Positions 5,980 through 39,404 of a stretch of 64,000 nt of DNA are shown here, in pieces. The stretch comes from Armatimonadota bacterium. GTDB taxonomy: Bacteria > Armatimonadota > SYMT01. A program made the translations under genes and the position numbers. The notes below the pieces were generated by a model. That model saw only the letters and a list, made by a program, of their open reading frames with translations. It was not told the DNA's origin and searched no databases. Position 1 is the stretch's first letter; every line of letters starts with the position of its first letter. The DNA lies in NCBI GenBank assembly GCA_046292385.1, contig JBKBRF010000032.1, forward strand, positions 1-64,000. Reading direction: 5' to 3'.

Positions 5980-6558
5980 CGACCCCGCGCCCTTGTGCCG
6001 GGGGGCAGCCCTCCCGCGACAAATGCCCTCCGCGGCCCTTTCACGCGCCTTCGGCGCTAGCAGGCCGCTCCGGGAGTGCGCACCGCCGACCTCATCCCGC
6101 GCCACTGCCGGGATTGCACCATCAGCTGGGTTCACGGGCTGCCCCCCGGCCCTTCGAGCGAACCCCCCTGCGCCCAGGGGGGTTCACAAGTGGCGCCCTG
6201 CGGGCGCCCTGGTTTCTGGCTGCGATCCAACCGGAACTGCGCTTCCTCTTGAGATTAGACCCCGCAGAGGCTCGGGAGCTAGAAACTGTTGGAGCCCGGA
6301 GGACCTGCCGGAGGCAGGGCTGGAGGGTGCCAGTTGTGACCACCCCCGGGTGCCCGCGTGCGGGCGGTAGGGGTGGTTGCTTGAGCCGGACGGGGCGGCC
6401 CGTGAATCGCCGTCTCGGCGAAGCCGCAACTTACGGACGCGGAGCGCAGCCACACGGGGCGCACGCCCGCAGCAGCCCGCTAGCCCGAAGGGCGTGAAAG
6501 GGCCGCGGAGGGCCTCACTCGCGGGAGGGCCGCTCCGCTCGGTGAGGGCACGGGGTGG
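5980..6558. repeat. Long interrupted-palindrome element, copy 1
   Basis: Homologous to 9913-10470 and 38823-39404. Nested inverted blocks, e.g. 6025-6046 is the exact reverse complement of 6492-6513. Confidence 0.92.
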
Positions 6559-6663
6559 GCCACCGGGGAGATGATGCGGTCGCGAAAGGCGAAACTTTAG
6601 GTCCACGCACGCAGCGGGGCTGCAGAACGAATAGGCCTGAACGTACCAGGCCCGGGAGTCAGG

Positions 6664-7332
6664 ATGGACTGGATCAAAGACCTGTTGTCGAATCTCCACG
6701 GCGAGCACCTGGCGGAATTCATCCGCTGGGGCGGCTATCTGCTCCTGTTCGCCATCGTCTTCGCGGAGACCGGTCTCTTGATCGGGTTCTTCCTGCCGGG
6801 CGACTCGCTCCTCTTCACCGCGGGCGCCCTGGTCGGCTCGGGGCTGCTGAAGGCGCCGGCGCCGATCCCGCAGGATCCGCTCACCAGCATCGTGCTGCTG
6901 AACCTGCTGCTCATGATCGCCGCAATCGCCGGGGATACCTGCGGCTACTGGTTTGGAAAGAAGACCGGTCCCCGGATTTTCAACCGGCCCGATTCCCGCC
7001 TCTTCAAGCGGGAGCACCTGCTCGCCGCGCAGGCATTCTATGAGAAGCACGGCGGGCGCACGATCATCCTGGCGCGGTGGGTGCCGTTCGTCCGCACCTT
7101 CGCGCCGATCGTAGCGGGCGCGGCGGAGATGCCTTACGGCCGGTTCATGACGTACAACATCGTGGGCGGGATCTCCTGGGTGGCGATCTGCAGCCTGCTG
7201 GGTTACTTCCTCGGCAGCATCCCCTGGGTGAAGGCCCACAACGAGAAGGTGATCCTCACTATTATCGCGGTGTCGCTCCTGCCGGTGGCGTACCACTGGC
7301 TGCAGGAGCGCCGGCACGCGAAGAAGTCCTGA
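6664..7332 (+). CDS. dedA: DedA/VTT family membrane protein
   Basis: FAETGLLIGFFLPGDSLLF and ARWVPFVRTFAPIVAG motifs. Confidence 0.92.
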   Translation: MDWIKDLLSNLHGEHLAEFIRWGGYLLLFAIVFAETGLLIGFFLPGDSLLFTAGALVGSGLLKAPAPIPQDPLTSIVLLNLLLMIAAIAGDTCGYWFGKKTGPRIFNRPDSRLFKREHLLAAQAFYEKHGGRTIILARWVPFVRTFAPIVAGAAEMPYGRFMTYNIVGGISWVAICSLLGYFLGSIPWVKAHNEKVILTIIAVSLLPVAYHWLQERRHAKKS

Positions 7333-7343
7333 CGAGAGCGGAG

Positions 7344-8186
7344 ATGGCAGAACGCAAGCCGGTGACGGCTCCGGAGCTCGTGGCGATGAAGAGCCGCGGC
7401 GAGAAGGTGGTCGTGGTGACGGCGTACGACTATGCCGGCGCGCTCTACGCCGACCGTGCCGGCGTCGACGCCATCCTGGTGGGCGACACGCTCGGGATGG
7501 TGGTTCAGGGGCACGACACCACGCTGCCGGTCACGCCGGACGAGATCCTCTACCACGTGCGGGCGGTGGTCCGCGCCAGGCCCCGCGCGCTGGTGGTGGC
7601 CGACATGCCGTTCCTGAGCTACCAGGTGAGCGAGGAAGAGGCGATCCGCACCGCCGGCCGCTTCATCAAGGAAGGCGGGGCCGGCGCCGTGAAGCTGGAG
7701 GGCGGCGACGCGGTGGTGGCGCTCGTGCGGCGGATGGTCTCCATCGGCATCCCGGTGATGGCGCACCTGGGGCTCACGCCGCAGTCGGTGCATACGCTGG
7801 GCGGCTTCCGTGTGCAGGCCCGCTCCCCGGAGGCTGCGCGCCAGCTCCTGCGCGACGCGTGCGAGCTGGAAGAAGCCGGCGCCTTCAGCCTGGTCCTGGA
7901 AGGCGTGCCGACCGAAGTGGCGAAGGTGGTGAGCCAGAGCCTGCGCATCCCGACGATCGGCATCGGCGCCGGCGTGCACTGTGACGGCCAGGTGCAGGTG
8001 TTCCACGACATGCTCGGCCTCTACGATCCGTTCACGCCGAAGCACGCGAAGCGGTACGCGGAGCTGGGGCAGGCAGTGCACGATGCCATCGCGACCTACG
8101 CCGCCGAGGTGCGCGCGGGCCAGTTCCCGGAGGAGGCGCACAGCTACCATCAGCGCGACCTGGAGGATCCCTCCAAGTGGACGTAG
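7344..8186 (+). CDS. panB: 3-methyl-2-oxobutanoate hydroxymethyltransferase
   Basis: [24 protein letters not shown] and IGIGAG..CDGQVQV. ATG at 7344. Confidence 0.96.
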
Positions 8187-9025
8187 CGACCACCGTTTCC
8201 GAGCTGCGGGAGGCGGTGCGGCGCGCCCGCGCCGGCGGCGCGCGGGTCGGCCTGGTGCCGACGATGGGCGCGCTTCACGAGGGGCACCTCTCGTTGATCC
8301 GGCGGGCGCGCGCGGAGTGCGGGCTGGTGGTGGTGACGCTCTTCGTCAACCCGACCCAGTTCGCTCCCACCGAGGACCTGAGCCGCTATCCGCGCGACTT
8401 CGAAGGAGACTGCGCGAAGTCCCGGAGCGCGGGCGCCGACCTGATGTTCGCCCCCGGGGTAGACGAGGTCTACCCGGCAGGCGCCGCCACGTGGGTTACC
8501 GTGGAGGGTCCCCTCACCACCTGCCTGGAAGGCGCGCACCGGCCGACTCACTTCCGAGGCGTGACCACCGTCGTCGCCAAGCTGTTCAACATGGCGCAGC
8601 CGGACCGGGCCTACTTCGGCGAGAAAGACTACCAGCAGCTCCAGGTGATCCGAAAGATGACACGCGATCTCGACCTGCCGGTCGAGGTGGTCCCCTGCGC
8701 CACGGTCCGGGAAGCCGACGGCCTGGCGATGAGCAGCCGGAACCAGTACCTCTCGCCGGAGGAGCGGCGGCGGGCGCTCGCCCTCTCCGGCGGCCTCGCG
8801 CAGGCGCGCGCGCTCTTCGAGAGCGGAGAGCGCAGCCGGGAAGCGCTGGAAGCCGCAGCCCGCGCGCCGCTGGAGAGTGAGCGGGAGATCCGGATCGGCT
8901 ACGTGGCCCTCGCCGACGCGGAGACGCTGGAGCCGGTCGAGCGCGTGGAGCGGCCCGCCGTGTTAGCCGTCGCCGCCCGCGTGGGTACCACTCGCCTGAT
9001 CGACAACACGGTGCTGCGACCCTGA
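8177..9025 (+). CDS. panC: Pantoate--beta-alanine ligase
   Basis: [34 protein letters not shown] and RLIDN. Confidence 0.97.
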
Positions 9026-9030
9026 ACCCG

Positions 9031-9864
9031 ATGCTGAGCCCACGAGAGATCGACGAAGCGGTAGACCGCGCCCTGGCCGAAGATATCGGTCCGGGCGACA
9101 TCACCTCCCTCGCCACCCTGCCGCCGGATGCCCCGGGGCGCGCGGTCTTCCTGGCGAAGGACACCGGTGTGCTCGCCGGGATGCCGGTGCTGGAGCGGGT
9201 CTTCGCGCGGGTCGATCCGTCCGTCAGGCTGGAGCTGCTCCGCCACGACGGCGAGGACGTGACGCCCGGCACGGAGCTGGCGGTGGCGCGCGGCGCTGCC
9301 GCTTCGATTCTGACCGCGGAGCGCACCTCTCTCAACTTCCTGCAGTTTCTCTCCGGTATCGCGACGCGGACCGCACGGTTCGTGGCGCTGGTGCAGGGGA
9401 CCTCCGCGAGAGTGGTCGACACCCGCAAGACCGTCCCCGGCCTCCGCAGCCTCTCCAAGTACGCGGTGCGGGTGGGCGGCGGCACGAATCACCGCTTCGG
9501 CCTCTACGACGGCGTCTTGATCAAAGACAACCACATCCGCGCCGCCGGCGGGATTACGCCCGCCGTCCAGCAAGCCCGCCTCCGCGCCCACCACCTGCTC
9601 AAGGTGGAGGTGGAGACGGAGACGCTGGAGCAGGTGGAGGAGGCGCTCGACGCCGGCGCCGACATCGTGATGCTCGACAACATGGACCTGGCGACGCTGA
9701 CCCGCGCCGTCGACCTCTGCCGCGGCCGCGCCCTCACCGAGGCGTCGGGCGGCATCAACGAGCAGACGATCCGCTCCGTGGCGGAGACCGGGGTCGACCT
9801 GATCAGCGTGGGCGCGCTCACCCACTCCGTCACGGCGTTGGATATCAGCCTGGACTGGGACTGA
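9031..9864 (+). CDS. nadC: Nicotinate-nucleotide pyrophosphorylase (quinolinate phosphoribosyltransferase)
   Basis: DTRKTVPG, NHRFGLYD, IKDNHI, MLDN, EASGG and ISVGALTHS. Confidence 0.97.
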   Translation: MLSPREIDEAVDRALAEDIGPGDITSLATLPPDAPGRAVFLAKDTGVLAGMPVLERVFARVDPSVRLELLRHDGEDVTPGTELAVARGAAASILTAERTSLNFLQFLSGIATRTARFVALVQGTSARVVDTRKTVPGLRSLSKYAVRVGGGTNHRFGLYDGVLIKDNHIRAAGGITPAVQQARLRAHHLLKVEVETETLEQVEEALDAGADIVMLDNMDLATLTRAVDLCRGRALTEASGGINEQTIRSVAETGVDLISVGALTHSVTALDISLDWD

Positions 9865-9912
9865 GCTGGCGACCTGGCGCCTTTTTGCCAAGCAGCATCA
9901 GCCCCGAGAGCC

Positions 9913-10470
9913 CGACCCCGCGCCCTTGTGCCGGGAAGCAGCCCTCCCGCGACGAAGGCCCTCCGCGGCCTTTTCACACTCCGCTGCGCTCCGTTAGCAG
10001 GCCGCTGCGGGAGCTCACGTCGCGAGGCTCTTCCCGCGTCACAGACTTGATCGCTTCAACAGCCCAGTTCACGGGCTGCCTCCCGGCCCTTCGAGCGAAA
10101 CCCCCTGCGCCGCGGGGGGTTCACAGGTGGCACCCTCCGGTCCAGCCTACGGCTGCCCCTCCAGCCGCCTTTGAACACGGCCGCGCGCCCACAGACCATC
10201 GGAGCCTGGAGGCGCTGCCGGAGGCAGAGCCGGAGGGGTTCAATTGTGGCCACCCCCGGGTGCCCGCTTGCGGGCGGTAGGGGTGGCTGCTTGAGCCGGG
10301 CGGAGCGGCCCGTGAGACGCCGTCTTGTGGAAGCCGCCGTTCTCGATCGCGGAGCGCAGGCTGCCGGAGCGCACGCCCGGAGCAGCCCGCTAGCGCCGAA
10401 GGCGCGTGAAAGGGCGGCGGAGGGCCAAGCACGCGGGAGGGCCGCTCCGCCCGGGGAGGGCACGGGGTGG
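9913..10470. repeat. Long interrupted-palindrome element, copy 2
   Basis: Starts CGACCCCGCGCCCTTGTGCCGGG and ends GAGGGCACGGGGTGG, like copy 1. Confidence 0.92.
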
Positions 10471-10620
10471 ACCGCCGCAGAGATGGCGTTTCCGGAAAGT
10501 GGCAGATGCCTTGAGAGCAGCAGTCCGCAAGAGACTCTCACTCAACGCAGAGGATGTTTGGCCGCCTCCGCAGTAAGGAGAGTAGGTCTACTTCCCACCA
10601 GAGAGAGAGGTTGTTTGCAG

Positions 10621-11781
10621 ATGCCCGAACATCGAAGAATGCGCGTCGGGATGGTCGGCGGCGGCGGCCCGGCCAACTTCTTCGGCGGCCCGCACCGCAC
10701 CGCGATCCTGATGGACAACACCGCGGAGCTCACGGCGGGCGCGCTCCGCTCCAACCCGCAGGGCTCCATCGAGTCCGCGAAGGAGCTCTTCTTCACCCGC
10801 GGCTATCCCGACTACCAGTCGATGGCGTCGCAGGAGGCCGCACTGAGCGATGGGATCGACTACGTCACCATCGTGACGCCCAACGATCAGCACTACCCCG
10901 CCGCGAAGGCGTTCCTGGAGGCCGGCATCCCCGTCCTCTGCGAGAAGCCGCTCACCCTCACGCTGGAGGAGTCGCTCGACCTGATCCAGCTCACGAAAAA
11001 GACGGGGCTGCCGTTCATCGTGGCCTACACCTACACGGCGCTCCCGATGGTGATGCTCGCGCGGGAGTTCGTGCGCAACGGCGACATCGGCACGGTCCGC
11101 AAGGTGGAGGCCTGGTATCCGCAGGGCTGGCTCGCCGGCCGGACGGAGGACGCGGGCGTGCAGCAGGCGCAGTGGCGCGTCGATCCGAAGAAGTCGGGCG
11201 CCTCCGGCTGCGGCGGCGACATCGGCACCCACGCCTATGAGTTCGTCCGGTTCGTGGCGGGTCTCACCGCCGTCCAGGTGCAGGCGCGGCTTCACACCTT
11301 CGTCGGCGGCCGGAAGCTGGACGACGACTTCACCGTCCTTGCGCGGCTCAACAACGACGCGCTGGCGACGATCACCGCTTCCCAGGTGACGATCGGCGCG
11401 CAGAACGACAACGGCTTCCGCGTGGTGGGCGACAAGGGCACCGTGGAGTGGTCGATCACCGACCACACCTCGCTCAAGCTCTTCAAGGGCGGGCAGCCGG
11501 TGCAGATCTACCGCCTCGGCGCGGAGTACGACTACTTCCCCGCCAGCATCAAGCCGTATCTCCGCGTGCCCAGCGGTCACCCGGAAGGTTTCCACGAGGC
11601 GCTCGCCAACCTGCACAAGACGATCCAACTCCAGATCCGCAAGAAGAACGGCGAAGACGTTCCCGCGGCCTACCCCCACCCGGACGTGGTGGACGGCGCC
11701 GCCGGCATGGCGTTCATCGAAGCGGCCGTCGCCAGCAGCAACGACGACGGCAAGTGGACCGAGGTCCAGTCGGTGGACTAA
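10621..11781 (+). CDS. Gfo/Idh/MocA family oxidoreductase
   Basis: RVGMVGGG, IVTPN..H, CEKPL, DIGTH and PSGHPEGF. ATG at 10621. Confidence 0.92.
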   Translation: MPEHRRMRVGMVGGGGPANFFGGPHRTAILMDNTAELTAGALRSNPQGSIESAKELFFTRGYPDYQSMASQEAALSDGIDYVTIVTPNDQHYPAAKAFLEAGIPVLCEKPLTLTLEESLDLIQLTKKTGLPFIVAYTYTALPMVMLAREFVRNGDIGTVRKVEAWYPQGWLAGRTEDAGVQQAQWRVDPKKSGASGCGGDIGTHAYEFVRFVAGLTAVQVQARLHTFVGGRKLDDDFTVLARLNNDALATITASQVTIGAQNDNGFRVVGDKGTVEWSITDHTSLKLFKGGQPVQIYRLGAEYDYFPASIKPYLRVPSGHPEGFHEALANLHKTIQLQIRKKNGEDVPAAYPHPDVVDGAAGMAFIEAAVASSNDDGKWTEVQSVD

Positions 11782-11820
11782 GCCGCGGCGATTGGTGCGG
11801 TGATCTTGCAGGGCGGAGGG

Positions 11821-12369
11821 TTACCCCTCCGCCCTCGCTTCGTCTCGCTTGACACACCGGATCTCGAAGCTCCTTCCGCGGTAGAGATCCGCCCAGAACG
11901 TACTCGCCGCGCCCCGGTATTCCGCGAGCACCGCGCTTCCGAAGCACGCCTGCAGTACCGCGTGGGTCTCGCGAATGATCGTGTCGCTCCGGCTCTCGCC
12001 GAAATGCGGCAGGAGCACGGTTAGCTCCCCGCCGTCCCGCAGCACGCGGTGGCTCTCCGCGGCGAGCAGCTCCCTCAGCTCCAGGAAGAGGTGGAGCACG
12101 TACCCGCAGTGGACCCACGCCAGGCTGCCGCTGCGGAACGGCAGGTACGAAGCCTCTTTCCCCGGGTCCACCGACCCCGGCGGACGCAGTTCCGCTCCCA
12201 AGCGCAGCACGTCGGCCGGAAGCGGTGCCAGCGTCCCGGAGCGGACGCGGCCCGACGTGATCAGCGGGTCGAGCGCGATCCGGCGGACGCCGGGCGGCGC
12301 CGGTGTGGCGGCCCAGTGCTCCGCGTCGCTGCCCGCGCCGATGTCGAGCCAGAAGTCAGTCGGGGTCAT
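11821..12369 (-). CDS. Class I SAM-dependent methyltransferase-like protein
   Basis: WLDIGAG motif I, LPFRSGS and 'HRVLRDGG'. Start codon uncertain. Confidence 0.65.
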   Translation of the reverse strand: MTPTDFWLDIGAGSDAEHWAATPAPPGVRRIALDPLITSGRVRSGTLAPLPADVLRLGAELRPPGSVDPGKEASYLPFRSGSLAWVHCGYVLHLFLELRELLAAESHRVLRDGGELTVLLPHFGESRSDTIIRETHAVLQACFGSAVLAEYRGAASTFWADLYRGRSFEIRCVKRDEARAEG

Positions 12370-12490
12370 GATTGGCACCGTGGGATGTGTCTCGCACCGG
12401 TCGGCGGCCTGATTGGCTGCCGTAACCACCCTGCCGGCGGTGTGGTTTAATCAGGTGTGCGAGTCCCGTCTCCGGGCTGGCTCATCCCTT

Positions 12491-13240
12491 ATGAAAGATT
12501 ACTTCCGCATCACCCGGTCTCCCTGGCACTCGTTCGTTTTCGTGCTGCCGCTGCTGCTGCTGTACGAGGCGACGGTGCTCCTCGCGAACGCCGGTATGCG
12601 CTACCCGGTGGTAAACGGCGCCGACGCGCTGCTCTACGGGACGCTGCGGTCGCTCGGAGTGGGCGGCGTGCTGGGCAGCTCGCTGGTGCTGGCGGTGGTC
12701 GCCGGGATCGCGGTCTACTTCCTCGACCCGGAGGGCCGCCGCGGCGGCACCCGCTTCCGGCTGTTCCCGGGGGTGCTGGCGGAGAGCTCGGTCTACGCGC
12801 TCGTCCTCGGCACGCTGGTCGCGTTCCTCACGTCGCTGCTGCTCTCCGGCGGCGGGCTGCTCCAGATCGGCGGCGGCTCGCTCAACTTCGGGCAGCGACT
12901 CGCCCTCAGCCTCGGCGCGGGGCTCTACGAAGAGCTGGTCTTCCGCCTGCTGCTCACGGGCGGACTGGCCTGGCTCTTCCGCAAGCTCCTCCCGAAGAAG
13001 ACCGGGAGCGAGGCGGGACTCGGCACCCCGGTCGCCCTCGCCGTGTTGGTCTCCGCGCTCATCTTCTCCGGGTTTCACTACCTCGGAGCCTACGGCGACC
13101 CGTTCCAACTCGGGAGCTTTACGTTCCGGTTCATCGCCGGGCTGGTGCTCGCCGCCCTCTTCGCCGTGCGAGGCTTTGCCGTCGCGGCGTGGACCCACGC
13201 GCTCTACGACGTCTTTCTCGTTTTCGCCGGCCGGGCGTAG
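12491..13240 (+). CDS. CPBP (CAAX/Abi) family intramembrane protease
   Basis: EELVFR, FSGFHY and THALYD motifs, with several TM segments. Confidence 0.88.
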   Translation: MKDYFRITRSPWHSFVFVLPLLLLYEATVLLANAGMRYPVVNGADALLYGTLRSLGVGGVLGSSLVLAVVAGIAVYFLDPEGRRGGTRFRLFPGVLAESSVYALVLGTLVAFLTSLLLSGGGLLQIGGGSLNFGQRLALSLGAGLYEELVFRLLLTGGLAWLFRKLLPKKTGSEAGLGTPVALAVLVSALIFSGFHYLGAYGDPFQLGSFTFRFIAGLVLAALFAVRGFAVAAWTHALYDVFLVFAGRA

Positions 13241-13262
13241 GTCTGCGGGAGCCCGCACGTAC

Positions 13263-13294
13263 GCGAGGCCGGCGGAGCACTCCGCCGGCCTCGC
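13263..13294. terminator. GC-rich hairpin between convergent genes
   Basis: GCGAGGCCGGCGGAG-CA-CTCCGCCGGCCTCGC is a perfect 15 bp inverted repeat. There is no clear U tract. Confidence 0.5.
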
Positions 13295-13320
13295 CGCGCA
13301 TCACGTCTTCGCTGCTTCTC

Positions 13321-14238
13321 TTACTTCGGGACGCGGGTCGACTCGATCGTCACGTCGAGCTTCCCGGGGATCTGCATGCCCATCACGTCGAACGTCATCG
13401 GGCCTATCACCCGCATCTTGCTGGTGCGCTCCACCACCGCGCCGCGCTCGCGATCGATGAGGATGGCGCCGCCGGAGGAATCGATCTTCAGGTCGCTGTT
13501 GGCCACCTGGAGCGGCAGCGGCGAGTTCGGCTCGAGCTGGTACTTGACCGAGCCGACCGAGTAGGCGATGCGGTCCAGCGTCTTGCCGCCCTTCTCCACC
13601 GGTCCCTCGTATTCGTAGAACGCCTCCAGCACGAACTGCTGCCCGGCGCCCAGGTTCATCACCTCGGTGCGAGACCAGCGGTCGCCCTTCTTTACCGGCT
13701 CGGCCGGCAGCACGGAGTAGGCCTGCTCCGCCGCCTGCTTGACCTTCTCCGGCGAGTACTCGGATTTCAGCGACTCCGCCACGGCCGGCGGCAGGTTCTG
13801 AACCACCTTGTCCAGGCCTTCCACCCCCGCCACCTTGTTCTGCGGCGAGAGCAGGATGGTGTAGGAGACGCCCTTGGAAGCCTTCAGGCTCTCGATCACC
13901 TGGTCCAGCGGTCCGCCCACGGCGGGGGCCGGCTTGTCGGAGTCGAAGTCGACCTCGGAGCCCGGCACTTCCAGCCTGAGCTTGACGTGCTTGATCGTCT
14001 CGGTGATCGGCTGGTTTCCGTCCGGCCGGCGCGCCCCGTAGGCCACCTCCGTGGTGCTGGCACCTTCGGCGCGCGTCTCCACGTTCATCCCGGCGATGGT
14101 CAGCGTCTGCGCCACGCGCGTGGTCTCTACCACCGTGCGCTTCTCGCCCTCGGGGAACTTCAGCTCCAGCTTTACCTGGGCGCTCGCCGCGGTGACCAGT
14201 CCCACCGCCAGCAGTGTCGCGAATCCTACCCGTCGCAT
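13321..14238 (-). CDS. Secreted beta-rich protein (DUF6263-like)
   Basis: Signal peptide MRRVGFATLLAVGLVTAASA, followed by 'LELKFPEGE', 'FDSD' and 'LPAEPVKKGDRW'. Confidence 0.7.
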   Translation of the reverse strand: MRRVGFATLLAVGLVTAASAQVKLELKFPEGEKRTVVETTRVAQTLTIAGMNVETRAEGASTTEVAYGARRPDGNQPITETIKHVKLRLEVPGSEVDFDSDKPAPAVGGPLDQVIESLKASKGVSYTILLSPQNKVAGVEGLDKVVQNLPPAVAESLKSEYSPEKVKQAAEQAYSVLPAEPVKKGDRWSRTEVMNLGAGQQFVLEAFYEYEGPVEKGGKTLDRIAYSVGSVKYQLEPNSPLPLQVANSDLKIDSSGGAILIDRERGAVVERTSKMRVIGPMTFDVMGMQIPGKLDVTIESTRVPK

Positions 14239-14317
14239 CTCATCACTCCTCCCATTCCCCCGTCTCGCGGGAGATCCGTTGGTTGAACGTCCGGTATCCC
14301 GCCCGGTTACGGGAAGA

Positions 14318-15667: not shown

Positions 15668-15721
15668 GAGCAGTCTCTCCGTCACGAGGTCGCAATATCA
15701 GACGAAGATCCTGCTTTGCCG

Positions 15722-16108
15722 TTACGGGCGAGTTCTCCGTCTGCGGCGCCAGGCGGCGGAGAGGACCGCGAGAAAGGCGATCAGCAGATAGCCAAAAAGC
15801 GCGCCGCAGTAGGCGACGGTCTGGAGCGTTCCGGCGCGGTCGTACCAGTAGAGGTCCGTCAGGCCGATCCGGCGCAGGAGGAAGTCGGCAGCGGCGAGCG
15901 CGGCGGCGAGGGTGAGCACCAGGCTCAGGCCCCACACCATCCGCTTCTGGCGCCAGTCCGCCCACACCCGGGATGCGGGGAGTCGCGGCGGCAGCCGCGT
16001 GGAGCCGAGGTGGATCAGCAGGGCGGCGAGCAGCGCGGCAAGCACGCCGGCCGCCACGCTGTACGCGGCGATTCGGAGCAGCGTTCCGGTTGGATCGAAA
16101 GGGAGCAA
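15722..16108 (-). CDS. Hypothetical membrane protein (3 TM)
   Basis: 128 aa with three hydrophobic segments, filling the gap between two minus-strand genes. Confidence 0.55.
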   Translation of the reverse strand: MLPFDPTGTLLRIAAYSVAAGVLAALLAALLIHLGSTRLPPRLPASRVWADWRQKRMVWGLSLVLTLAAALAAADFLLRRIGLTDLYWYDRAGTLQTVAYCGALFGYLLIAFLAVLSAAWRRRRRTRP

Positions 16109-16160
16109 CTCCGCTCCTTAACGGGCGAGGAAGCCGGAAGCTGACGCCGGCTGCTTGACT

Positions 16161-16991: not shown

Positions 16992-17064
16992 CGTGCGTCC
17001 TACAGAGAAAGACGGGCGGTGCGCGGCGCAGCCGCGCGCCCGGTCGCTACCGCTGGGATCGAGA

Positions 17065-24018: not shown

Positions 24019-24326
24019 GGAGATAAGGGGATGGGGGACGGGGATGAGGGGGATGGGGAACCAACCGGACTTGGCCTCCTACTCCTTCTCGTTCTCCTTC
24101 TCTTTCTCAAGAGGCTGCCCGAAACCGAAAGCAGCCCAGCGTAAAGCGGGCGACTCGCGCCTGCCGGAGGTCCGGATTCATCCGTCATTCTTCCGCCTTC
24201 ATCCTTCTCAAGCACGCCGGAAACACGATGGTCGCCAGCGAGCAGGAGCAAGAGCAAGAGTAGGAGCAGGACCTGCTGTTCACGGAGGGTTCGGATTCAT
24301 CCCTCATCCCTCATCCTTCATCCCTC
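24019..24326. repeat. Composite heptamer/hexamer tandem-repeat element
   Basis: A (GGGGATG)n-like run, a (CTCCTW)n-like run, a (GAGCAR)n run and two (YTCATCC)n runs. Confidence 0.8.
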
Positions 24327-25119: not shown

Positions 25120-25416
25120 AACCGCCAGGCACGCCAGGATTCCGAACCTGACTCACCACAGAGCGCACAGAGGGCACAGAGAGGAACCGAAACCAGGGGA
25201 GGAGCCTGACCCGCCTGTCGAGTCCGTACAGCGGCCGCGGCCCGAACCTGACTCACCGCAGAGAACGCGAAGAGCGCAGAGGGAACGCAGAGGGGAACCA
25301 GAGGCTGCGCGGATGGGCCTGATCCGCCTCACGAGTCCCGTACAGCGGCCCCGGCGTTTGTCCCTTCTGGTTCCTCTTTGCGTTCTTGGCGTCTTGGCGG
25401 TTCAATTCAGGTTCGG
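25120..25416. repeat. Nonamer-based inverted repeat element with duplicated left arm
   Basis: CCGAACCTGA at 25142 and 25242, with reverse complement TCAGGTTCGG at 25407-25416. Internal (GCACAGAGG)/(CTTGGCGT)-type periodic runs. Confidence 0.8.
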
Positions 25417-27369: not shown

Positions 27370-27402
27370 CCCCTCCCGCGAGTACGTGGTGCATCGAAAC
27401 GG

Positions 27403-27524: not shown

Positions 27525-27530
27525 CGGGGC

Positions 27531-28544: not shown

Positions 28545-28664
28545 GTAAATCGGTCTCCTCGCAGCACGATCGACGGTCCGGTCAGGTCGCCCAGACAGTT
28601 GGGCACGCAGGCAGGCGGGACCTTCCTTTCGGAGACGGAGAGACCTTCGGGGACAGAGGGGACG

Positions 28665-28762
28665 GCGCCCCGGAGGGGCGCGAGACGATAGCCGGGGTGC
28701 AAGCGCAGCGCAGCCCCCGGACTCACGCCGGCCCAACAGATCCGCCCCGGAGGGGCGGCGGA
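28665..28762. repeat. REP-like three-hairpin element, copy B
   Basis: CGCCCCGGAGGGGCG occurs twice (28666, 28743), flanking CCGGGG..GCGCAGCGC..CCCCGG. Confidence 0.8.
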
Positions 28763-28788
28763 ACCGCCTCGCGGCTGAGGCAGCGCGG

Positions 28789-29619: not shown

Positions 29620-29620
29620 C

Positions 29621-32600: not shown

Positions 32601-32635
32601 CGAGCGCCCTGGATGGAGATGCGGTCGAGCGGCAT
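29621..32635 (-). CDS. uvrA: Excinuclease ABC subunit A
   Basis: GARQHNLKN, two Walker A motifs (GVSGSGKS), zinc fingers, LSGGEAQR and LDEPTTGLH. Confidence 0.98.
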
Positions 32636-32822
32636 GACGGCGAGCCCCGGTAGATCGAAAATCCGTTTGCGGTACGGCACTCGATTCTAACACAAGCGTC
32701 CCCGGCCCTATGCAGTGCGACCGTCTCTCCCGTGACTCGTTCTGCGGAGGATTCCCGCCCGCCAGGATCGTAAGATTTCCTTTCAGGACAGATTTCTCCC
32801 GAAGCGTTCCAGGAGTACCCCC

Positions 32823-35036
32823 ATGGCGATGGAGATGGCACCCTCGCCCACCGGCGCGCCGGTGGTGCCGCCGAAGCTGACCCAGCCCAGCCCCGCTTAC
32901 CGGCTCTGGGTGGGCCTGGTCCTGGCGAGTCTGTTCCTGTTCCTGGTCTTCTACGTGGGCCTGGTGGCAGGGACCGGCTACCTGCTCTATCTCTCGGTCG
33001 TCTTCCCGATCGACCCTTCGGAGCGAGGGCAGATCTTCCTTAAGCTCGCCGTCATTGCCTCCGCGGCGATGCTCTTTCTCTTCCTGCTCAAGGGGTTGTT
33101 CAAGCGGCAGGAGCGCAGCCAGGACGGGATGGTGGAGATCACCGAGGCGGAGCAGCCGGAGCTGTACGCTTTCATCCGCCAGCTCTGCGCGGAGACGCGC
33201 GCCCCATTTCCGCACCGGGTCTTCCTGAGCCCGGAGGTCAACGCCGCCGTCTTCTACGATACCTCCCTGCTCAACCTGATCCTGCCGGTCAAGAAGAACC
33301 TGCTGATCGGCCTGGGGCTGGTGAACGTGCTGCCGATGACCGAGTTCCGCGCGGTGCTGGCCCACGAATTCGGGCACTTCTCTCAGAGCAGCATGGCGTT
33401 GGGGAGCTACGTCTACGTGGTGAACCGGATCATCGCGGACATGGTCTACGGCCGCGACTTCTGGGACGACTGGCTCCACCAGGCCAAGAAGCTCGACATC
33501 CGCCTCGCAATCATCGCCTGGATCCTCGCCGGCCTGGTCTGGGTGGTGCGCCTCCTCCTGACCGGCGCCTTCCGCGTCATCAACCTGGCGGAGTCGGCGC
33601 TCTCCCGGCAGATGGAGTTCCACGCCGACCTGGTGGCGGTGAGCGTGACCGGCAGCGACGCGCTGGTGCATGCCCTCTCGCGCCTCGAACTCGCCTCGCA
33701 CGCCCTGGGGCAGGCGCAGCACGACCTTTCCGCTGCGCTGTCGCAAGGGCTCTACAGCCGCGACCTCTTCCATCACCACTCGCGCGCCATCGAGTACCTG
33801 CGGGCGCAGGCGAAGGACCCGAGCCTCGGCACGCCGCCGCCGCTGCCGGACGATCCGGCGCAGAAGTCGCGGGTCTTCGAGCCGGGCCAGGGCGAGCCGC
33901 CCTCCATGTGGGCCTCTCACCCCCCGAACTCCGACCGCGAGGAGAACGCCAAGCGGGACTACCTCCGCAGCGTGCTGGACGAGCGGTCGTCCTGGCTCCT
34001 CTTCCGGGACCCGGAGAAGCTGCGCGAGCGGGTTACCTCGGAGGCGTACCGCACCGGCCCCGGCCTGCCGGACGGCACGCAGCTCCGCGAGCCCTCCGAG
34101 GTACAGGCGTTCATCGACGAGGAGCACGGCGAGACGACCTACGACGAGCGCTACCACGGCCTCTACGACGGCCGCTATCTCACACCCGGCAACGTGGACG
34201 AAGTGGTGGCCGCGATCCGCGCCACGCCGTGGCCGCGGGAGCGGATCGGCCAGGTCTACACCGCGCTCTACGCGGAAACCCTGAAGGAGCGGGCGGAGCA
34301 GCACTACCGCCGCATGAGCGAGCACCAGATGCTGGCGGGCCTGGACGACGGGGAGTACAAGCTCCGCGGCAAGGACTTCGAGTTCCGGGACGCCCGCTAT
34401 CGAAAGGGGGACGTCAAGCGGCTCCGCGAGCAGGTGGAGAAGGAGCTGGAGCAGGACTCCCTGTGGCTGGAGAAGTTCGACCGCGAGGTCTTTCTGGTCC
34501 ACTTCCAGATGTCGTGCTACCTGGGCGGATCCGAGTCCGGCGAACTGCTCTCCCGCTACCGCTTCCACACCGGCGCGCAGGAGATCCTCCGGAACCTCGC
34601 CGGGGAGATGGCGCGCATGGAGCACGTGCTCGGCTACCTCCAGACACGCCCGGACATCGACGAGGCGACGCACAACGAAGTGATGGGACACTTCCGGACC
34701 GCCCGGGAGACCTACGGCACGGCGATACGGCAGGCGGCCGCACTGCCGCTCCCCCCGCTCAAGAACATGCAGGCGGGGATGCCGCTGAGCAGCTACCTCG
34801 CGGTCGGCGCCCCGGTGGCCGCGATCGCTCCCGACCAGAAGAACATCAATGGCGAGTGGATCGGCGCCTTCATGGAGCAGCTCGGCCAGGCGATCCACCG
34901 GGTCAAGCGGGTCCACTTCAAGAGCCTCGGCGGGATTCTCTCGCTCCAGGAGCGGATCGCCGCGGAGTGGCGCGAGGTGACCGGCACCCCGAAGCCGCCT
35001 GCCGCCCCCGGGGCCGATCCGTCGCCGGCAAGCTGA
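32823..35036 (+). CDS. M48 family zinc metalloprotease with long C-terminal extension
   Basis: TM segments, VNAAV, LAHEFGH, SRQMEFHAD and SHPPNSDR. Confidence 0.9.
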   Translation: MAMEMAPSPTGAPVVPPKLTQPSPAYRLWVGLVLASLFLFLVFYVGLVAGTGYLLYLSVVFPIDPSERGQIFLKLAVIASAAMLFLFLLKGLFKRQERSQDGMVEITEAEQPELYAFIRQLCAETRAPFPHRVFLSPEVNAAVFYDTSLLNLILPVKKNLLIGLGLVNVLPMTEFRAVLAHEFGHFSQSSMALGSYVYVVNRIIADMVYGRDFWDDWLHQAKKLDIRLAIIAWILAGLVWVVRLLLTGAFRVINLAESALSRQMEFHADLVAVSVTGSDALVHALSRLELASHALGQAQHDLSAALSQGLYSRDLFHHHSRAIEYLRAQAKDPSLGTPPPLPDDPAQKSRVFEPGQGEPPSMWASHPPNSDREENAKRDYLRSVLDERSSWLLFRDPEKLRERVTSEAYRTGPGLPDGTQLREPSEVQAFIDEEHGETTYDERYHGLYDGRYLTPGNVDEVVAAIRATPWPRERIGQVYTALYAETLKERAEQHYRRMSEHQMLAGLDDGEYKLRGKDFEFRDARYRKGDVKRLREQVEKELEQDSLWLEKFDREVFLVHFQMSCYLGGSESGELLSRYRFHTGAQEILRNLAGEMARMEHVLGYLQTRPDIDEATHNEVMGHFRTARETYGTAIRQAAALPLPPLKNMQAGMPLSSYLAVGAPVAAIAPDQKNINGEWIGAFMEQLGQAIHRVKRVHFKSLGGILSLQERIAAEWREVTGTPKPPAAPGADPSPAS

Positions 35037-35098
35037 TCCAACCCTCGGCCCTCGCCCGGCATTCTACGGATAGGGAGTACCGATCGGGAGAGGGCCGA

Positions 35099-35770
35099 AT
35101 GCAGACCTGGGGACGGTTCGACTGGCTGCTGATTGTAATCGGGTATGTCGTTCCGGCGCTCGGGATTGGGTGGGTCGCCGTCCGCCTCTCCCGTGGTAAG
35201 GAAGCGCCATCCCGGCGAGAGCTCTGGCGGCGGCGGGCGCTGTTGGCCCTGGGAGCGGTTGCCGCCTATCCGGTGGCCCTGTTCGTCTTCACCTCCTTCT
35301 TCATCAAGCCGTACTTCGGCAGCCTGGCGAAGATGCGGGCGGTCATCTGCCATTCCCACCTCAAACAGCTCTCGACCGCCCTGGCGCTTTATTTGGAGGA
35401 GTGGGACGAGACCTACCCACCGGCCGACCGCTGGGGTGACCGGATCGCGACGTTCCTGCCGAATGAGGAACGCGAGGCCGCATTTCGCTGCCTGGGTACG
35501 CGCAGTCCCTACGGTTACGCTCTCAACCGCGCGGTGGCGGGCCGCCCAGTGCGCGAGATCGCGGATCCGGAAACGGTGATCCTGGTAGAGCATGACGCTC
35601 GTACCCGGAACGAGACCGTCGAGCCGGGCACGACCCTCCCGAGCGATCGGCATGGCCGGTCGAAAGTCGCCCGCATGGATGGAAGCGTCCGGTCTATCAC
35701 ACCGACAGGTGAGGGGTCGCTGGTGTGGGACTCCCGCATTGCTCCGGCGGAGCTCGAGCCCTCCGACTGA
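35099..35770 (+). CDS. Membrane protein with DUF1559-like pilin domain
   Basis: Two TM segments, then 'C.SHLKQL..AL.LY..EWDETYP...FRC...YGYALN...DG.V'. ATG at 35099. Confidence 0.65.
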   Translation: MQTWGRFDWLLIVIGYVVPALGIGWVAVRLSRGKEAPSRRELWRRRALLALGAVAAYPVALFVFTSFFIKPYFGSLAKMRAVICHSHLKQLSTALALYLEEWDETYPPADRWGDRIATFLPNEEREAAFRCLGTRSPYGYALNRAVAGRPVREIADPETVILVEHDARTRNETVEPGTTLPSDRHGRSKVARMDGSVRSITPTGEGSLVWDSRIAPAELEPSD

Positions 35771-35875
35771 CGCCGCGCCACCGCAGGGCGTTCCACGTAG
35801 ACTCCGACCCGCGCTGCTCCGTAGAATGCGGGGGCGGGCAGCGTGGCCTGCAAGCGCCTTCGCGGAGACACGACG

Positions 35876-36322
35876 ATGTGCCGGTATGCAATGTACCCCT
35901 ACATGGAGCACTACGCCTGCTTCGCCTGCCGGCGGATGTTCCGGCGGCCGTGGCGGGAGGGCGAGGTGCCCTGCCCCCGCTGCGCCGGACCGATGCACGA
36001 CCTGGGAAAGGACTTCAAGCCGCCGCAGCACCGGGACCGGGAGCAGTGGGCGAAGGTGGGGCTGCTCTTCCGGAAGGGGGTTACGTTCCACTCCTGCGGG
36101 TGCGGCGGACCGGGACCCCGCCCGGCCCGGCTGCGGGACGTGGAGCCGTTTCTCATGGAGCAGGCCACGGCGGCGGATCGCCGCGAGCGGGAGCGGCGGT
36201 GGATCGACCAGGAGATCCGCTGGAAACAGATCCGGAACCGCACGGTGCGGCACCGCCGGGAGAAGGCGTTCGCGGAGCTGATCCGGGGGCAGCGGCTTGA
36301 GGTGAGCGCCGTCGAGGCATAA
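35876..36322 (+). CDS. Small Cys-rich (Zn-binding) hypothetical protein
   Basis: CFAC, CPRC, 'GKDFKPP...D..QW' and SCGC. Confidence 0.7.
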   Translation: MCRYAMYPYMEHYACFACRRMFRRPWREGEVPCPRCAGPMHDLGKDFKPPQHRDREQWAKVGLLFRKGVTFHSCGCGGPGPRPARLRDVEPFLMEQATAADRRERERRWIDQEIRWKQIRNRTVRHRREKAFAELIRGQRLEVSAVEA

Positions 36323-36363
36323 CGCCCTGGAGTTTGGCACGGCCGCTTCCGCCGCCCACCCCG

Positions 36364-36522
36364 GTCATCCTGAACGCCAGTGAGGAGGTACGTCACTCCA
36401 CTCTGCGGGAACCCGATGAGCCCCCACGTTCGGAAGCGTCTCGCCTGGCCGACACCTCGTCACGCTGGTGCGTGCCCCGGTCTAGGACGGCTGCCGAGAT
36501 TCTTCCCTGCGGTCAGAATGAC
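36364..36522. repeat. REP-like element with GTCATCCTGA...TCAGAATGAC ends
   Basis: 10 bp imperfect terminal inverted repeat between convergent genes. Confidence 0.55.
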
Positions 36523-36608
36523 GAATTCGGTAACTGGGTCGCTGTTCCGCTGGAGTCGGCGCGGGGGCGGCAGCGGCGCCGCCCCCGGCTGTCGTGTCCC
36601 GTCTCTGT

Positions 36609-37934
36609 CTACTGCACCACGCGGATCGAGTTGACGAACTCGCCCTCCCCCTCCCGCTCCGGGTTGGCGGGGTCGACCATCCACCGGCCGTCGACCACGA
36701 ACTTGTAGGCGTGGCGGCCCGGCTCGACCAGCACCTCGGCGGTCCAGGCGTCGCCCTTCCGGACGAGGGGGGACAGCTCCGGGGTCCAGGAGTTGAACGT
36801 CCCGGCCACGCGGACCTCCCGGGCTTCCGGATAGCCTTCCAGGCGGAAGGTGACCTTCTTGAGCGCGGGGGCGCTTCGCTCCACCTCGGCCAGGAGATTC
36901 TGCGTCCACTCCTTGCGAGGACCCGCCTCCATCGCCTCGACCACCTTCCGCAGGGCCAGCGTGTGGGCGCGGTGGAGCGCGGCGGCGACCGGCACCTCGA
37001 CGTCCGGCTTCACGCCGACGCCTTCCCAGTTCGTCTTGCTGATCGGGTTGATGGCGCGCCCCACCGGCACCCAGACGGTGAAGTGGTCGTCCGCGCGGCG
37101 GTCTCCGCCCGGGTTCGCGCCGCCGCCGGTCGTCTCTCCCACCACCACGGCGCGCTTCAGGTTCTGGAGGTCGTAGGCCAGCTCTTCCGCGCCGGAGAAG
37201 GTGGCGGGGCTGGTGAGGATGTAGATCGGCTTCCCCAGGTACCGCTTGCCCGGCACGTGCGCCCAGGTCCAGAACTGCCGCATGGTGTTCTCCGGCCGCC
37301 AATAGATGTCGTTCAGGTGGGTCGGCTTCTCGAAGAAGTAGGTGCAGAGCATCGGGATCGCATCCGGAGAGATGCTCCCGCCGCAGCGGCGGAGGTCGAT
37401 GATCAGCGCGTCGGTGTTCGTGAGGTAGGTCATCGCCGCCGCGTAGGTCTCCGCGGCCACCTCCGGCGGCGCCAGCAGCCGGAAGCTCAGGTAGCCGACG
37501 TTGCCCTTCAGGATGTCGAGCTTCTCCAGCCCGAAGTTGTCCCGGGCCATCTGCTTCCGCAGCTCCTCGGCCATCTCCGGCGTCAGGCTGTCCGGCCGCT
37601 CCGGCTCCGGCGGCAGCACCTCCGCGGAGTAGCCGACCCGCACATGCTTGTCATTGCTCACGGCGCGGAGGTCCGCCGTCAGCGCCTGCGCGAGGCCGGG
37701 GCCGTCGAGCTTGTCGTAAGCGCCGTTCGCGGCGCGCTCCCGCACTGACTTCTCCATCTTCTCCGCGACTTCCGGAAAGACGTAGCCCTCGCGCAGCCGG
37801 AGCAGCACGCCGTCGATGGCGCGGGCGCGGGCGGCGGCATCGAGCGGGGCGGGGGTCTCCCCCTGGGCGTAAGCGCCGCCTCCCGCCGCGAGGGCGGTGG
37901 AGACGGCCAGGAGCCATGCGTATCGCGCTTTCAT
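36609..37934 (-). CDS. Secreted S41 family peptidase with C-terminal CBM48/AMPK-type glycogen-binding domain
   Basis: Signal peptide, LIIDLR..GG, TFSGAE, VGETTGG and WEGVGVKPD, then 'V.VAGTFNSW...YKFVVDG.W..DP.NP'. Confidence 0.88.
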   Translation of the reverse strand: MKARYAWLLAVSTALAAGGGAYAQGETPAPLDAAARARAIDGVLLRLREGYVFPEVAEKMEKSVRERAANGAYDKLDGPGLAQALTADLRAVSNDKHVRVGYSAEVLPPEPERPDSLTPEMAEELRKQMARDNFGLEKLDILKGNVGYLSFRLLAPPEVAAETYAAAMTYLTNTDALIIDLRRCGGSISPDAIPMLCTYFFEKPTHLNDIYWRPENTMRQFWTWAHVPGKRYLGKPIYILTSPATFSGAEELAYDLQNLKRAVVVGETTGGGANPGGDRRADDHFTVWVPVGRAINPISKTNWEGVGVKPDVEVPVAAALHRAHTLALRKVVEAMEAGPRKEWTQNLLAEVERSAPALKKVTFRLEGYPEAREVRVAGTFNSWTPELSPLVRKGDAWTAEVLVEPGRHAYKFVVDGRWMVDPANPEREGEGEFVNSIRVVQ

Positions 37935-37986
37935 CGCTTCTCTCTCCGTTGAGTGGACTGCAAACCGTTTGCGGGGTTGACCGCGA

Positions 37987-38535
37987 CTAAGGCGTCAGCG
38001 GCGGATCTTCGCGGTCCGGGATCATCAGGTGCGCGAAGACGAGCCGGCGGCGGTCGCCTCCCGGCTCCTGCGCCCCCCATCGCTCCAGGAGCTCGCGCAG
38101 CTCCTCCATGAACTCCCGGTACTCCCCGGGGCTCAGGTGGAGTGAGCCCATCAGGGCGTGGAACGGGTCGTGAGCTGGATCGGTACCCTCCTGTGCGAGA
38201 TAGCTGCGGAAGAGCTCCGCCAGCAGGTTCTGAAAGGTCCCGAAGTGGCCCAGGTGCTCGGCGGCGGAGATCCCCCCCGTGTCGTCCGGTCCGATGCGCG
38301 TCTCGCCCGTGCGGACGGCGTACACCCTGGTCAGCGCGCCGTTGACCCGCACCTCCTCCACCGGCTCCACGATCCCGCCTTCCACCAGCAGGCGCAGGTG
38401 GCGGTAGATCGAGGAGAGCGCCACGTCCGGCAGCAGATGCCCGATCTGGTAGGTCGTGAGCCGCCTCCCCATCAACGCCGTGAGGATGCGGGAGCGGACC
38501 GGATGGCTGATGAGAGTGGCTCTACGACTGGACAT
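37987..38535 (-). CDS. ArsR-like winged-HTH transcriptional regulator
   Basis: HPVRSRIL, 'SIYRHLRLL..GG' and the C-terminal 'LSP.EY.EF..EL' helix. Confidence 0.85.
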   Translation of the reverse strand: MSSRRATLISHPVRSRILTALMGRRLTTYQIGHLLPDVALSSIYRHLRLLVEGGIVEPVEEVRVNGALTRVYAVRTGETRIGPDDTGGISAAEHLGHFGTFQNLLAELFRSYLAQEGTDPAHDPFHALMGSLHLSPGEYREFMEELRELLERWGAQEPGGDRRRLVFAHLMIPDREDPPLTP

Positions 38536-38556
38536 GCTGCGGCTGTACGGAGAGTG

Positions 38557-38572
38557 TTCTCATTATTGAGAA
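38557..38572. promoter_or_regulatory. Palindromic operator upstream of the HTH regulator
   Basis: TTCTCA-TTAT-TGAGAA in an AT-rich patch about 20 bp before the start codon. Confidence 0.6.
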
Positions 38573-38822
38573 TAATAATAGGACGGGGTGGTACCGACAA
38601 CCCCCTGTGGGGAGAACAAAGGAGAATTCTTCGCGGGGCCTTGGAAACGAGGGGGGAGAGCCCCGGAAGAGCTCCCCCACCCTTCTGTACTACTTACTAC
38701 GAGAATCTTGCCGGGAGGCGCAGATCCGCCGGCGGTCATCGCGCGTGGGCCGTGCGAAGCGGGAGGGGCCAGTCTTGAGGCGTCTTTGCTTCTCTTTAAG
38801 ATGCAGCATCGATCCCGCGATC

Positions 38823-39404
38823 CGACCCCGCGCCCTTGTGCCGGGAGGCAGCCCTCCCGCGACGCAGGCCCTCCGCGGCCCTTTCACACTCCGCTGCGCT
38901 CCGTTGGCAGGCAGCTGCGGGAGCTCCCGTCGAGAAGCTCTTCCCGCGCCAGGAAGCGTAACCCGTGCCGGCAGGGGAGCTCACGGGCTGCCTCCCGACC
39001 CTTCGAGCTACCACCCCTCCGCCCAGGGGTGGTCACAACTGGCGCCCTCCGGGCGCCTCGGGTCTGGGCACGGTCGGCCGCCGGCGGGCTACCGCGAGCC
39101 GGTCCAGCACGCCTGGGCTTCGCGCCCACGGGGCGTCGGGATCTGCGAAGCCCGGAAGCGCTGCCGGAGGCAGAGCTGGAGGGGTTCACCTGTGACCACC
39201 CCTGGTAGGGGTGGTCGCTTGAGCCGCCCGGAGCGGCCCGTGAGTCGTCATCTCGCTGCAGGCGCCGGCTGCGGACGCGGAACGCAGCCAACCGATGGGC
39301 ACGCCCGCAGCGCCCGCTAGCGGAGGCGCAGCCGGAGCGTGAAAGGGCCGCGGAGGGGCCACCCACGCGCGAGGGCCGCTCCGGGTGGTGAGGGCGCGGG
39401 GTGG
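38823..39404. repeat. Long interrupted-palindrome element, copy 3
   Basis: Same termini and block order as copies 1 and 2. The outer stem ACCCCGCGCCCT/AGGGCGCGGGGT is perfect. Confidence 0.92.

Follow-up and report, generated by a model that had tools for sequence, protein, structure and literature searches.

The three dispersed repeat elements studied here lie in a 64-kb stretch of DNA from an Armatimonadota bacterium (positions 1 to 64,000 of contig JBKBRF010000032.1, hereafter the window), where the original prediction had described them as giant hairpins. We find that each element is a pair of modules, and that the conserved, folded and strand-specific unit is the single module. The structure kept by selection is a strand-specific fold inside each module. 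The family is mobile, having spread from site to site, and it is confined to one bacterial family. At about an even chance, we favour the reading that the module, 220-260 nt in length, is a lineage-restricted, intergenic, non-autonomous element that is mobilised in trans as single-stranded DNA.

All three copies were recovered at positions 5980-6558, 9913-10470 and 38823-39404, all on the + strand and with the predicted start and end motifs in common, and a three-way alignment covered their whole length at a mean column identity of 82%. The inverted arms described for copy 1 are present as well, 5982-6055 being 76% complementary to 6483-6556 over 74 nt and the inner block 6131-6145/6392-6406 being 93% complementary. 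Folded as a whole element, copy 1 reached -391.9 kcal/mol on the + strand and -391.4 kcal/mol on the - strand (shuffle mean about -302), corresponding to z = -10.98 and -11.35, and none of 100 shuffles was as stable. Each arm was found to pair with itself too, for example 5997-6011 with 6136-6150 (15 nt, 100% complementary).

The modules fall into two sequence types, L and R, with a median identity of 0.76 among L modules, 0.78 among R modules and 0.64 between L and R after reverse complementing one of them. A giant hairpin between the two arms had been proposed as the conserved structure, and this is not borne out, since the L-R pairing lacks covariation. For the 188 L-R pairs of the consensus fold, 86.3% of cells were paired versus 86.1% with the partners shuffled, and 88 of 500 shuffles reached the observed value. 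Compensatory cells numbered 64 against 47 +/- 6 in the shuffles (4 of 500 reaching the observed number), a small excess of the kind that shared subfamily history would produce, and many variable positions break the long pairing outright. The duplex energy of an L arm with its own R arm was -290.5 kcal/mol, compared to -286.4 kcal/mol (sd 23) with foreign R arms, and the ranks of the own partners were spread evenly. Identity of an L module to its own R module was 0.656 and that of any L-R pair 0.641. RNAalifold applied to 26 full-length copies returned local pairs instead of long-range ones. The long L-R pairing is a by-product of the inverted arrangement of the modules.

Covariation analysis thus gave a divided answer, with none across L and R and a strong signal within each arm. 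When 117 arms were aligned in one orientation, nested helices with abundant compensatory change emerged inside the arm. A consensus was derived with RNAalifold from an alignment of 66 diverse modules (A2), from which a covariance model (R1) was built. The A2 consensus holds 44 pairs, 21 of them with double changes; 96.9% of cells were paired versus 83.7 +/- 0.4 in shuffles, and compensatory cells amounted to 392 versus 134 +/- 12, neither value being reached in any of 500 shuffles. As a further control, sliding the partners by 1-3 columns reduced the paired fraction to 35-46%.

The 44 pairs of R1 form 11 helices with 3 branch points, laid out as a 5' hairpin, closing helices of 4 bp and 15 bp, a sequence-variable hairpin and a stack of short helices. 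In the 15-bp closing helix, 10 pairs carry double changes, several of them with 3-4 pair types. Between the conserved segments CCCGUGAA and CGCGGG stands a hairpin whose pairing is kept while its sequence varies, and the joining segments CUUGUGA, CCCGUGAA, GCUAGCG, GUGAAAGG and CGCGGGAGGGC are conserved across genera. On inspection, the apex that caps the stack is a C(GNA)G three-base loop in 66 of the 66 A2 rows (GAA 42, GCA 17, GGA 6, GTA 1), while the stem beneath it is fully different between copies. Loops of the d(GNA) type closed by C-G are described in two papers as very stable DNA mini-hairpins (PMC13037366, PMC3201870). Rare variants were about equally common in paired (0.72 per column) and in conserved unpaired columns (1.15 per column), and in neither scarcer than elsewhere; at paired sites 26 of them keep the pair and 38 break it. 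This pattern suggests that the fold is needed in propagating copies and is not upheld in each resident copy. An additional observation concerns two modules, C2:197940-198212 (R type) and C23:52906-53198 (L type; here and below, C numbers are contigs), which have one insertion in common, a further hairpin of about 20 nt (CUUGUCCCCCGAACGGGGG-like) that stands behind GUGAAAGG at an identical position in both.

Mismatches at the paired sites identify the folded strand. On the L-forward strand, A.C/C.A combinations occur 408 times and G.T/T.G combinations 31 times, an asymmetry which points to the complement of L-forward as the wobble-compatible, folded strand. The functional strand had been considered unresolved; it can now be assigned per arm, since in the window R arms fold on + and L arms on -, and every dimer consists of two folded modules that face outward from the core. 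Both the covariation and the wobble asymmetry are compatible with RNA or single-stranded DNA alike.

To place the three copies in their genome (G000: 7.04 Mb in 91 contigs, 69% G+C, 98% complete, 79% called coding), a hidden Markov model (HMM) was built from them. It gave 214 matches, which merge into 115 loci comprising 26 dimers, 81 solo modules (42 L and 39 R) and 8 fragments, and R1 gave 142 module matches (E<=0.001). The original prediction of a multi-copy non-coding element is therefore sound, and its unit and number need revision: the three copies are three of 26 dimers among 115 loci. An overlap of more than 30 nt with a called gene was seen at 0 of the 115 loci. Close pairs of modules in the genome are without exception (-,+), the L type standing on the left. 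A long form is seen in 12 of the 26 dimers, copy 3 included, with extensions of about 150 nt on the left and about 100 nt on the right, sharp outer limits and a shared core. Several deletion forms exist as well; one of about 410 nt combines the left end, an R module and the right extension, and is found with the same internal junction at 5 loci with unrelated flanks.

The modules show no consistent orientation to neighbouring genes. Tallied over the per-locus rows, 40 solo modules are co-directional with the upstream gene and 35 are divergent; the gene context is convergent for 27 loci, divergent for 20 and tandem for about 54, so convergent gene ends are not preferred. Genes beside modules are functionally unrelated in all genomes looked at, and their families include PSCyt1, PSD3, PSD5 and many sulfatases, a set that may point to Planctomycetota. 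The loci are clustered: contig C8 (159 kb) holds 14 of the 115 and contig C40 (63 kb) another 8, those on C40 all being solo modules that share one folded-strand direction on inspection. The long-form dimer at C8:6870-7687 has direct copies of a sequence of about 50 nt (TAGCGAGGGGTAGCTCCCTTGC...GTGCCGGGCGAGA) on both flanks, and a motif related to this flank repeat directly follows a gene on C40 that resembles a REP-associated tyrosine transposase (RAYT; REP, repetitive extragenic palindrome).

Within the window, the modules and extensions are as follows, a slash marking an element junction here and below.

5980..6247, folded strand -, L-type module of copy 1 (R1 match 5980-6196 on -, 186 bits; limits from the 117-unit alignment).
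6248..6294, no strand, variable core of copy 1 between the outward-facing modules (low conservation of its columns in the alignments of 3 and of 26 copies).
6295..6558, folded strand +, R-type module of copy 1 (R1 match 6327-6558 on +, 159 bits; limits from the module alignment).
9913..10168, strand -, L-type module of copy 2 (R1 match 9913-10133 on -, 196 bits).
10205..10470, strand +, R-type module of copy 2 (R1 match 10237-10470 on +, 159 bits).
38679..38822, strand +, left extension of the long form of copy 3 (left end ...TTCTGT/ACTACTTACT, a subterminal hairpin, then spacer).
38823..39085, strand -, L-type module of copy 3, inner limit approximate (R1 match 38823-39045 on -, 183 bits).
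39146..39404, strand +, R-type module of copy 3 (R1 match 39183-39404 on +, 175 bits; start from repeat family D7).
39405..39503, strand +, right extension of copy 3 (ends ...GGCATCAGCCGAGCCGTG/ directly after a small hairpin).

Copy 3 is accordingly the core of a longer form of about 825 nt at 38679-39503, which matches positions 15-839 of the 856-position long-form HMM with 865 bits. All three copies are intergenic with respect to called genes, as predicted, and their neighbours are housekeeping genes: a helicase and a VTT-domain protein for copy 1, nadC and a GFO-type oxidoreductase for copy 2, an ArsR-type regulator and an aldehyde dehydrogenase for copy 3. A consensus scan revealed no sigma-70-like promoter in or beside copies 1 and 2. 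That the window lacks a transposase, as noted originally, was checked for the 15 open reading frames near the copies. The window also holds other repeats. Positions 28663-28735 belong to another REP/REPIN-like family, whose copies are about 100 nt long and occur on many contigs (REPINs being doublets of REPs that form hairpins). A 44-nt GAGCAAGAG-rich repeat stands at 24246-24289 and 59462-59505 (86% identity), and a 40-nt unit recurs 100 nt apart within 25142-25281 (80% identity).

Mobility of the family is supported by orthologous sites that are occupied in one genome and empty in another, by the swing in copy number between related genera (142 down to 0), and by the deletion variant at 5 unrelated loci, which implies copying after the deletion arose. 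Copy 2 lies in a nadC-GFO spacer of about 750 nt in G000. The gene order panC-nadC-GFO is kept in three related genomes; the spacer of G004 measures about 165 nt and that of G001 about 140 nt, neither with an R1 match, and in G005 it consists of about 510 nt of other repeats, again without an R1 match. Conversely, a dimer sits between PfkB and NIF3 in G005, and the same two genes are about 150 nt apart in G000 with no module between them. That spacer of G000 (C55:5960-6110) is filled by a palindromic repeat of AACCTG/CAGGTT-like units. Fixed orthologous positions were not seen. Monomers have spread alone, as indicated by 5 monomers with a common deletion junction; solo modules outnumber dimers by 81 to 26. 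Contigs of four DNA runs over positions 3800-12000 were short pieces breaking at repeats and yielded no clean empty-site joint.

The ends of the element were defined on sharp-ended relatives and could be placed in 16 of 17 copies. As the two ends are unrelated to each other and the flanks differ, there are neither terminal inverted repeats nor target-site duplications; the absence of the latter had been predicted. The left junction mostly reads ...CTGT/ACTACTCACC (CTGT/ACTAC), with a hairpin about 10 nt inside, and the right end is a small hairpin followed by GCGCTGTG/, both hairpins being judged by eye. CTGT closes the left flank in 11 of 15 readable copies, with CTGC, CTGG or CTAC in the others, and may belong to the target or to the element. 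On inspection, the long form begins with CT/GTAC, 8 nt and a hairpin, and ends with a hairpin and GCT/GTG. Short TCTGTGT-like motifs recur in the flanks. By eye, one monomer on C16 appears to interrupt another palindromic repeat within its loop; no adjacent pair turned up when that palindrome was sought in intact form by short words. Monomers C16:77358-77772 and C14:58418-58841 lie in or beside palindromic repeats of the AACCTG/CAGGTT type.

Across 7 genomes of the bacterial family, R1 matched 142, 16, 8, 1, 0, 0 and 0 times, the 16, 8 and 1 matches belonging to three other genera and three further genomes having none. In a sample of 151 genomes of the phylum, R1 matched in 3, all in one family. 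The fold is retained in the relatives: 23 modules of G004, G005 and G006 were 92.6% paired versus 79.0 +/- 0.7 in shuffles, with compensatory changes at 26 of 44 pairs, in an alignment fitted to R1, which favours these pairing figures. G005 contains 4 outward-facing module pairs, G006 contains two same-direction triples, and one metagenome locus has a same-direction pair. A gapped module pattern retrieved 68 metagenome stretches, in 7 of which R1 confirmed 8 modules. No coding partner was seen at any of these R1-confirmed modules in the 7 stretches; one metagenome module lies 25 nt after an IS3-type integrase fragment. The long-form left end, used as a pattern, matched 0 metagenome stretches. 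A 20-nt conserved block retrieved 3 stretches from the species genome collection, which were discarded, 2 having no HMM match and 1 matching at the pattern only.

Modules were also seen next to a CRISPR-Cas locus. At G005:C3:826000-842000, a type I-E locus (Cse2, Cas7, Cas5, Cas1, Cas2) has two arrays, each with two modules at its trailer end that point the way the array is transcribed. A CRISPR link was dropped, as the CRISPR repeat of G000 is unrelated and its arrays lie elsewhere.

Candidate enzymes of the HUH type with a single catalytic tyrosine (Y1) are present in G000. Five such genes, two IS200-like (on C51 and C22) and three RAYT-like, encode the HxH and Y...NPV motifs. The RAYT-like reading frames lie at C83:9670-10395, C40:61900-62787 and C5:162858-163676, each amid its own repeats. 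The type on C83 and C40 is flanked by a REPIN of about 180 nt (TGTGGAGTGCG...CGCACTCCACA) that is frequent at contig ends and abuts several truncated modules, e.g., at C40:35339, C23:108825 and C22:111750. The IS200-like Y1 gene on C22 (55537-55983) is flanked by the REP/REPIN-like family of about 100 nt. IS200-like Y1 genes occur in G000, G002, G004, G005 and G006 and fit the distribution of the module in 6 of 7 genomes, better than the RAYT-like genes do. In G004 (5.1 Mb, 1140 contigs), one contig, C207:1-6571, holds both the genome's single module (6340-6562) and its single IS200-like Y1 gene (3249-3644), 2.7 kb apart and separated by a gene and by the Y1 gene's own REP cluster (CTGTAG followed by a hairpin). 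This co-location is suggestive, as a single case.

Other partners were searched for in G000 by protein domain. The TnpB domains PF07282 and PF01385 and the reverse transcriptase domain PF00078 (RVT_1) each gave 0 matches with working controls, and the IscB RRXRR domain PF14239 gave 0 matches in a search whose control was silent too. The two IS110-type genes of G000 were rejected as partners, both lying away from modules. In line with the earlier note, the 64-kb window gave 0 Rfam matches at gathering score; at E<=10, positions 38500-39600 gave mir-3150 alone, at 16.7 bits versus a gathering score of 100, a chance match.

In the reading that we favour, the elements would be copied in the form of single-stranded DNA by an HUH enzyme acting in trans (Y1, of RAYT or IS200 type), which would cut adjacent to CT/GT at both ends, and the fold would be needed in propagating copies without being upheld in each resident copy. 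The features of the ends, i.e., no inverted ends, no duplication, CTGT and hairpins, resemble those of single-strand elements moved by Y1 enzymes of the HUH class. For the transposase TnpA-REP, PMC8266576 describes binding and action on one REP strand only and cleavage at CT beside GTAG plus a hairpin. For IS200/IS605 elements, PMC5027513 describes how a single strand is excised in circular form and inserted beside a short, specific sequence.

Several results weigh against this reading. No enzyme partner was found: around the five Y1 genes, HMM and R1 searches showed neither a module nor a long-form end over about 2 kb, each gene is flanked by a different REP/REPIN family, and the flanks of the IS200-like genes on C51 and C22 differ from the element ends. 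Y1 genes are present in G002, which lacks the module. The ends of the short forms are ragged, not sharp. Folded as DNA, single modules were no more stable than shuffles (z -0.78 and -1.08). The two folds of a dimer lie on opposite strands, which a one-strand mechanism leaves unexplained. To our knowledge, a fold of eight helices and 220 nt with conserved joins, kept across genera, far exceeds the need of any known HUH enzyme, and it looks RNA-like.

The orientation of the modules belongs with these points. At 10 kb, 51 of 81 solo modules fold on the strand that is locally C-rich (mean signed skew -0.014, t-test p 0.0007), and at 25 kb 49 of 81 do so; a cruder first count had given 49 of 81 (binomial p 0.075). 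Replication direction was inferred from skew on unordered contigs: the G-rich strand carries 59% of coding bases and is hence probably leading-strand sequence, equivalent to the lagging-strand template. For IS200/IS605, PMC5027513 states that the active strand is favoured on the lagging-strand template. The orientation of the folded strand is thus probably opposite to the rule known from IS608. As a speculation, the bias may stem from the loss of those copies that expose their structure-prone strand during replication.

A serious alternative, which we hold tentatively, is that the module represents a structured non-coding RNA, new and about 220 nt long, that mobile DNA has carried along and multiplied. 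It might serve as a guide-type scaffold, as a ribozyme or for the binding of a protein; selection would then keep the fold for the sake of the working RNA, and the RNAs of a dimer would be read outward. The complexity of the fold, with its 44 pairs, 11 helices and 3 branch points, speaks for an RNA, as do the joining segments conserved across genera, the stems and one whole hairpin that vary with pairing kept, and the wobble asymmetry of 408 versus 31. The same-direction tandem sets in low-copy relatives resemble clusters of small RNA genes. Guide RNAs of TnpB read toward the right end and the flank, and the scaffold of the monomer form does likewise. Against an RNA, neither copy 1 nor copy 2 has a sigma-70-like promoter in or beside it, the cores are GC-rich, and the modules have no consistent direction relative to neighbour genes (40 solo modules co-directional, 35 divergent), which are unrelated in function. 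No TnpB and no reverse transcriptase accompany the modules in G000, and IscB gave 0 matches with a silent control. Rare variants that disrupt a pair (38) are about as numerous as those that preserve it (26), and the invariant C(GNA)G apex is, in the papers cited above, a motif known for the stability of DNA rather than of RNA.

With more doubt, we consider that the module, with its roughly 220 nt, eight helices, conserved junctions and invariant C(GNA)G cap, could be an undescribed large structured nucleic acid, a selfish element without a protein whose fold is itself active. It would then represent either a new RNA class, such as a guide-type scaffold or a ribozyme, serving an unrecognised enzyme, or a folded single-stranded DNA substrate that goes far beyond the known recognition sites of HUH enzymes in complexity.

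We regard it as improbable that the whole dimer is the unit, be it as a MITE (miniature inverted-repeat transposable element) moved by a DDE transposase, with terminal inverted repeats of about 250 bp and several transposase-binding blocks, or as a hairpin RNA or cruciform of 580 nt, the solo modules being deletion remnants. Dimers do fold very stably, close pairs in G000 uniformly have the (-,+) layout, with four such pairs in G005, and dimers have spread as units, given that the 12 long-form dimers share extensions and core. Against this, an L arm shows no excess of pairing, energy or identity with its own R arm, the covarying fold is internal to the arm, solo modules outnumber dimers and monomers spread alone, target duplications are absent, and the long-form ends, by eye, are not inverted repeats of each other. 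A MITE of the DDE type was rejected, as the dimers have inverted arms but no duplication and the monomers lack inverted ends yet have spread.

It is equally unlikely that the modules are host-domesticated elements similar to REPs or to bacterial interspersed mosaic elements (BIMEs), kept for a benefit to the host as binding sites for nucleoid proteins or topoisomerase, stabilisers of transcript ends or insulators: although all 115 loci lie outside genes, the family has persisted within one bacterial family and the L and R types alternate in inverted fashion like the two REP types of BIMEs (as described in PMC3333891), related genera range from 142 copies to 0 and have no orthologous sites in common, rare variants bear no sign of purifying selection on resident copies and convergent gene ends are not preferred (27 convergent, 20 divergent, about 54 tandem). 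A retro-copied element, e.g., one similar to a short interspersed nuclear element or a group II intron without a reading frame, was rejected, as no reverse transcriptase was found in the genome.

Returning to trans-mobilised single-stranded DNA, the family can be compared with described systems. With REP/REPIN-RAYT systems and BIMEs it shares intergenic location, high copy number, restriction to a lineage, folding on one strand and two types arranged in inverted pairs. Its left end, with CT beside a GTAC/GTAG-like motif and a hairpin, may be REP-like, although the module itself is not a short palindrome. RAYT-like genes and three or more further REP/REPIN families are present in G000. As in REPINs, intergenic sequences occur in many copies with a hairpin kept by compensatory change. 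The differences are equally clear: the module is a structure of 220-260 nt with about eight helices and conserved junctions, unlike a palindrome of 20-40 nt or a simple REPIN hairpin, and no Y1 gene is flanked by a module.

The absence of inverted ends and of duplication, subterminal hairpins and strand specificity are shared with the IS200/IS605 family and its derivatives, as described in PMC5027513, and insertion at a short motif may be shared as well. Yet the two IS200-like genes of G000 have other ends, the orientation bias is opposite and dimers fold on both strands. Protein-less derivatives of this family are known as palindrome-associated transposable elements (PATEs). The guide scaffolds of TnpB and IscB are likewise structured, covarying sequences of about 200 nt at a transposon end that read toward the flank; they differ in that no TnpB or IscB gene was found in G000 (the control for IscB being silent) and the module has no Rfam match. 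MITEs such as Correia, ERIC and Nezha are similarly short, non-coding, dispersed and intergenic, and share with the dimer form the inverted arms, but the elements studied here have no duplication, arms that do not co-evolve, half-elements that spread alone, and much larger inverted arms. In behaviour, the family is closest to a REPIN or to a non-autonomous element derived from IS200/IS605; membership of either fails because no cognate transposase gene is flanked by the element and because the orientation rule is opposite.

In most cases, a dispersed bacterial repeat is a short palindrome or a simple hairpin. The family described here has about 140 copies with an ornate, strand-specific and covarying fold, with no described RNA family and no visible protein partner. 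If the single-stranded DNA reading is true, HUH-type systems would recognise, or at least carry, much more than is known of them; if the RNA reading is true, the modules would constitute a multi-copy class of RNA that is new, in a phylum that has received little study. In either case, the 142 copies in one genome together with the low-copy relatives provide a natural data set for the upkeep of structure in propagating sequences.

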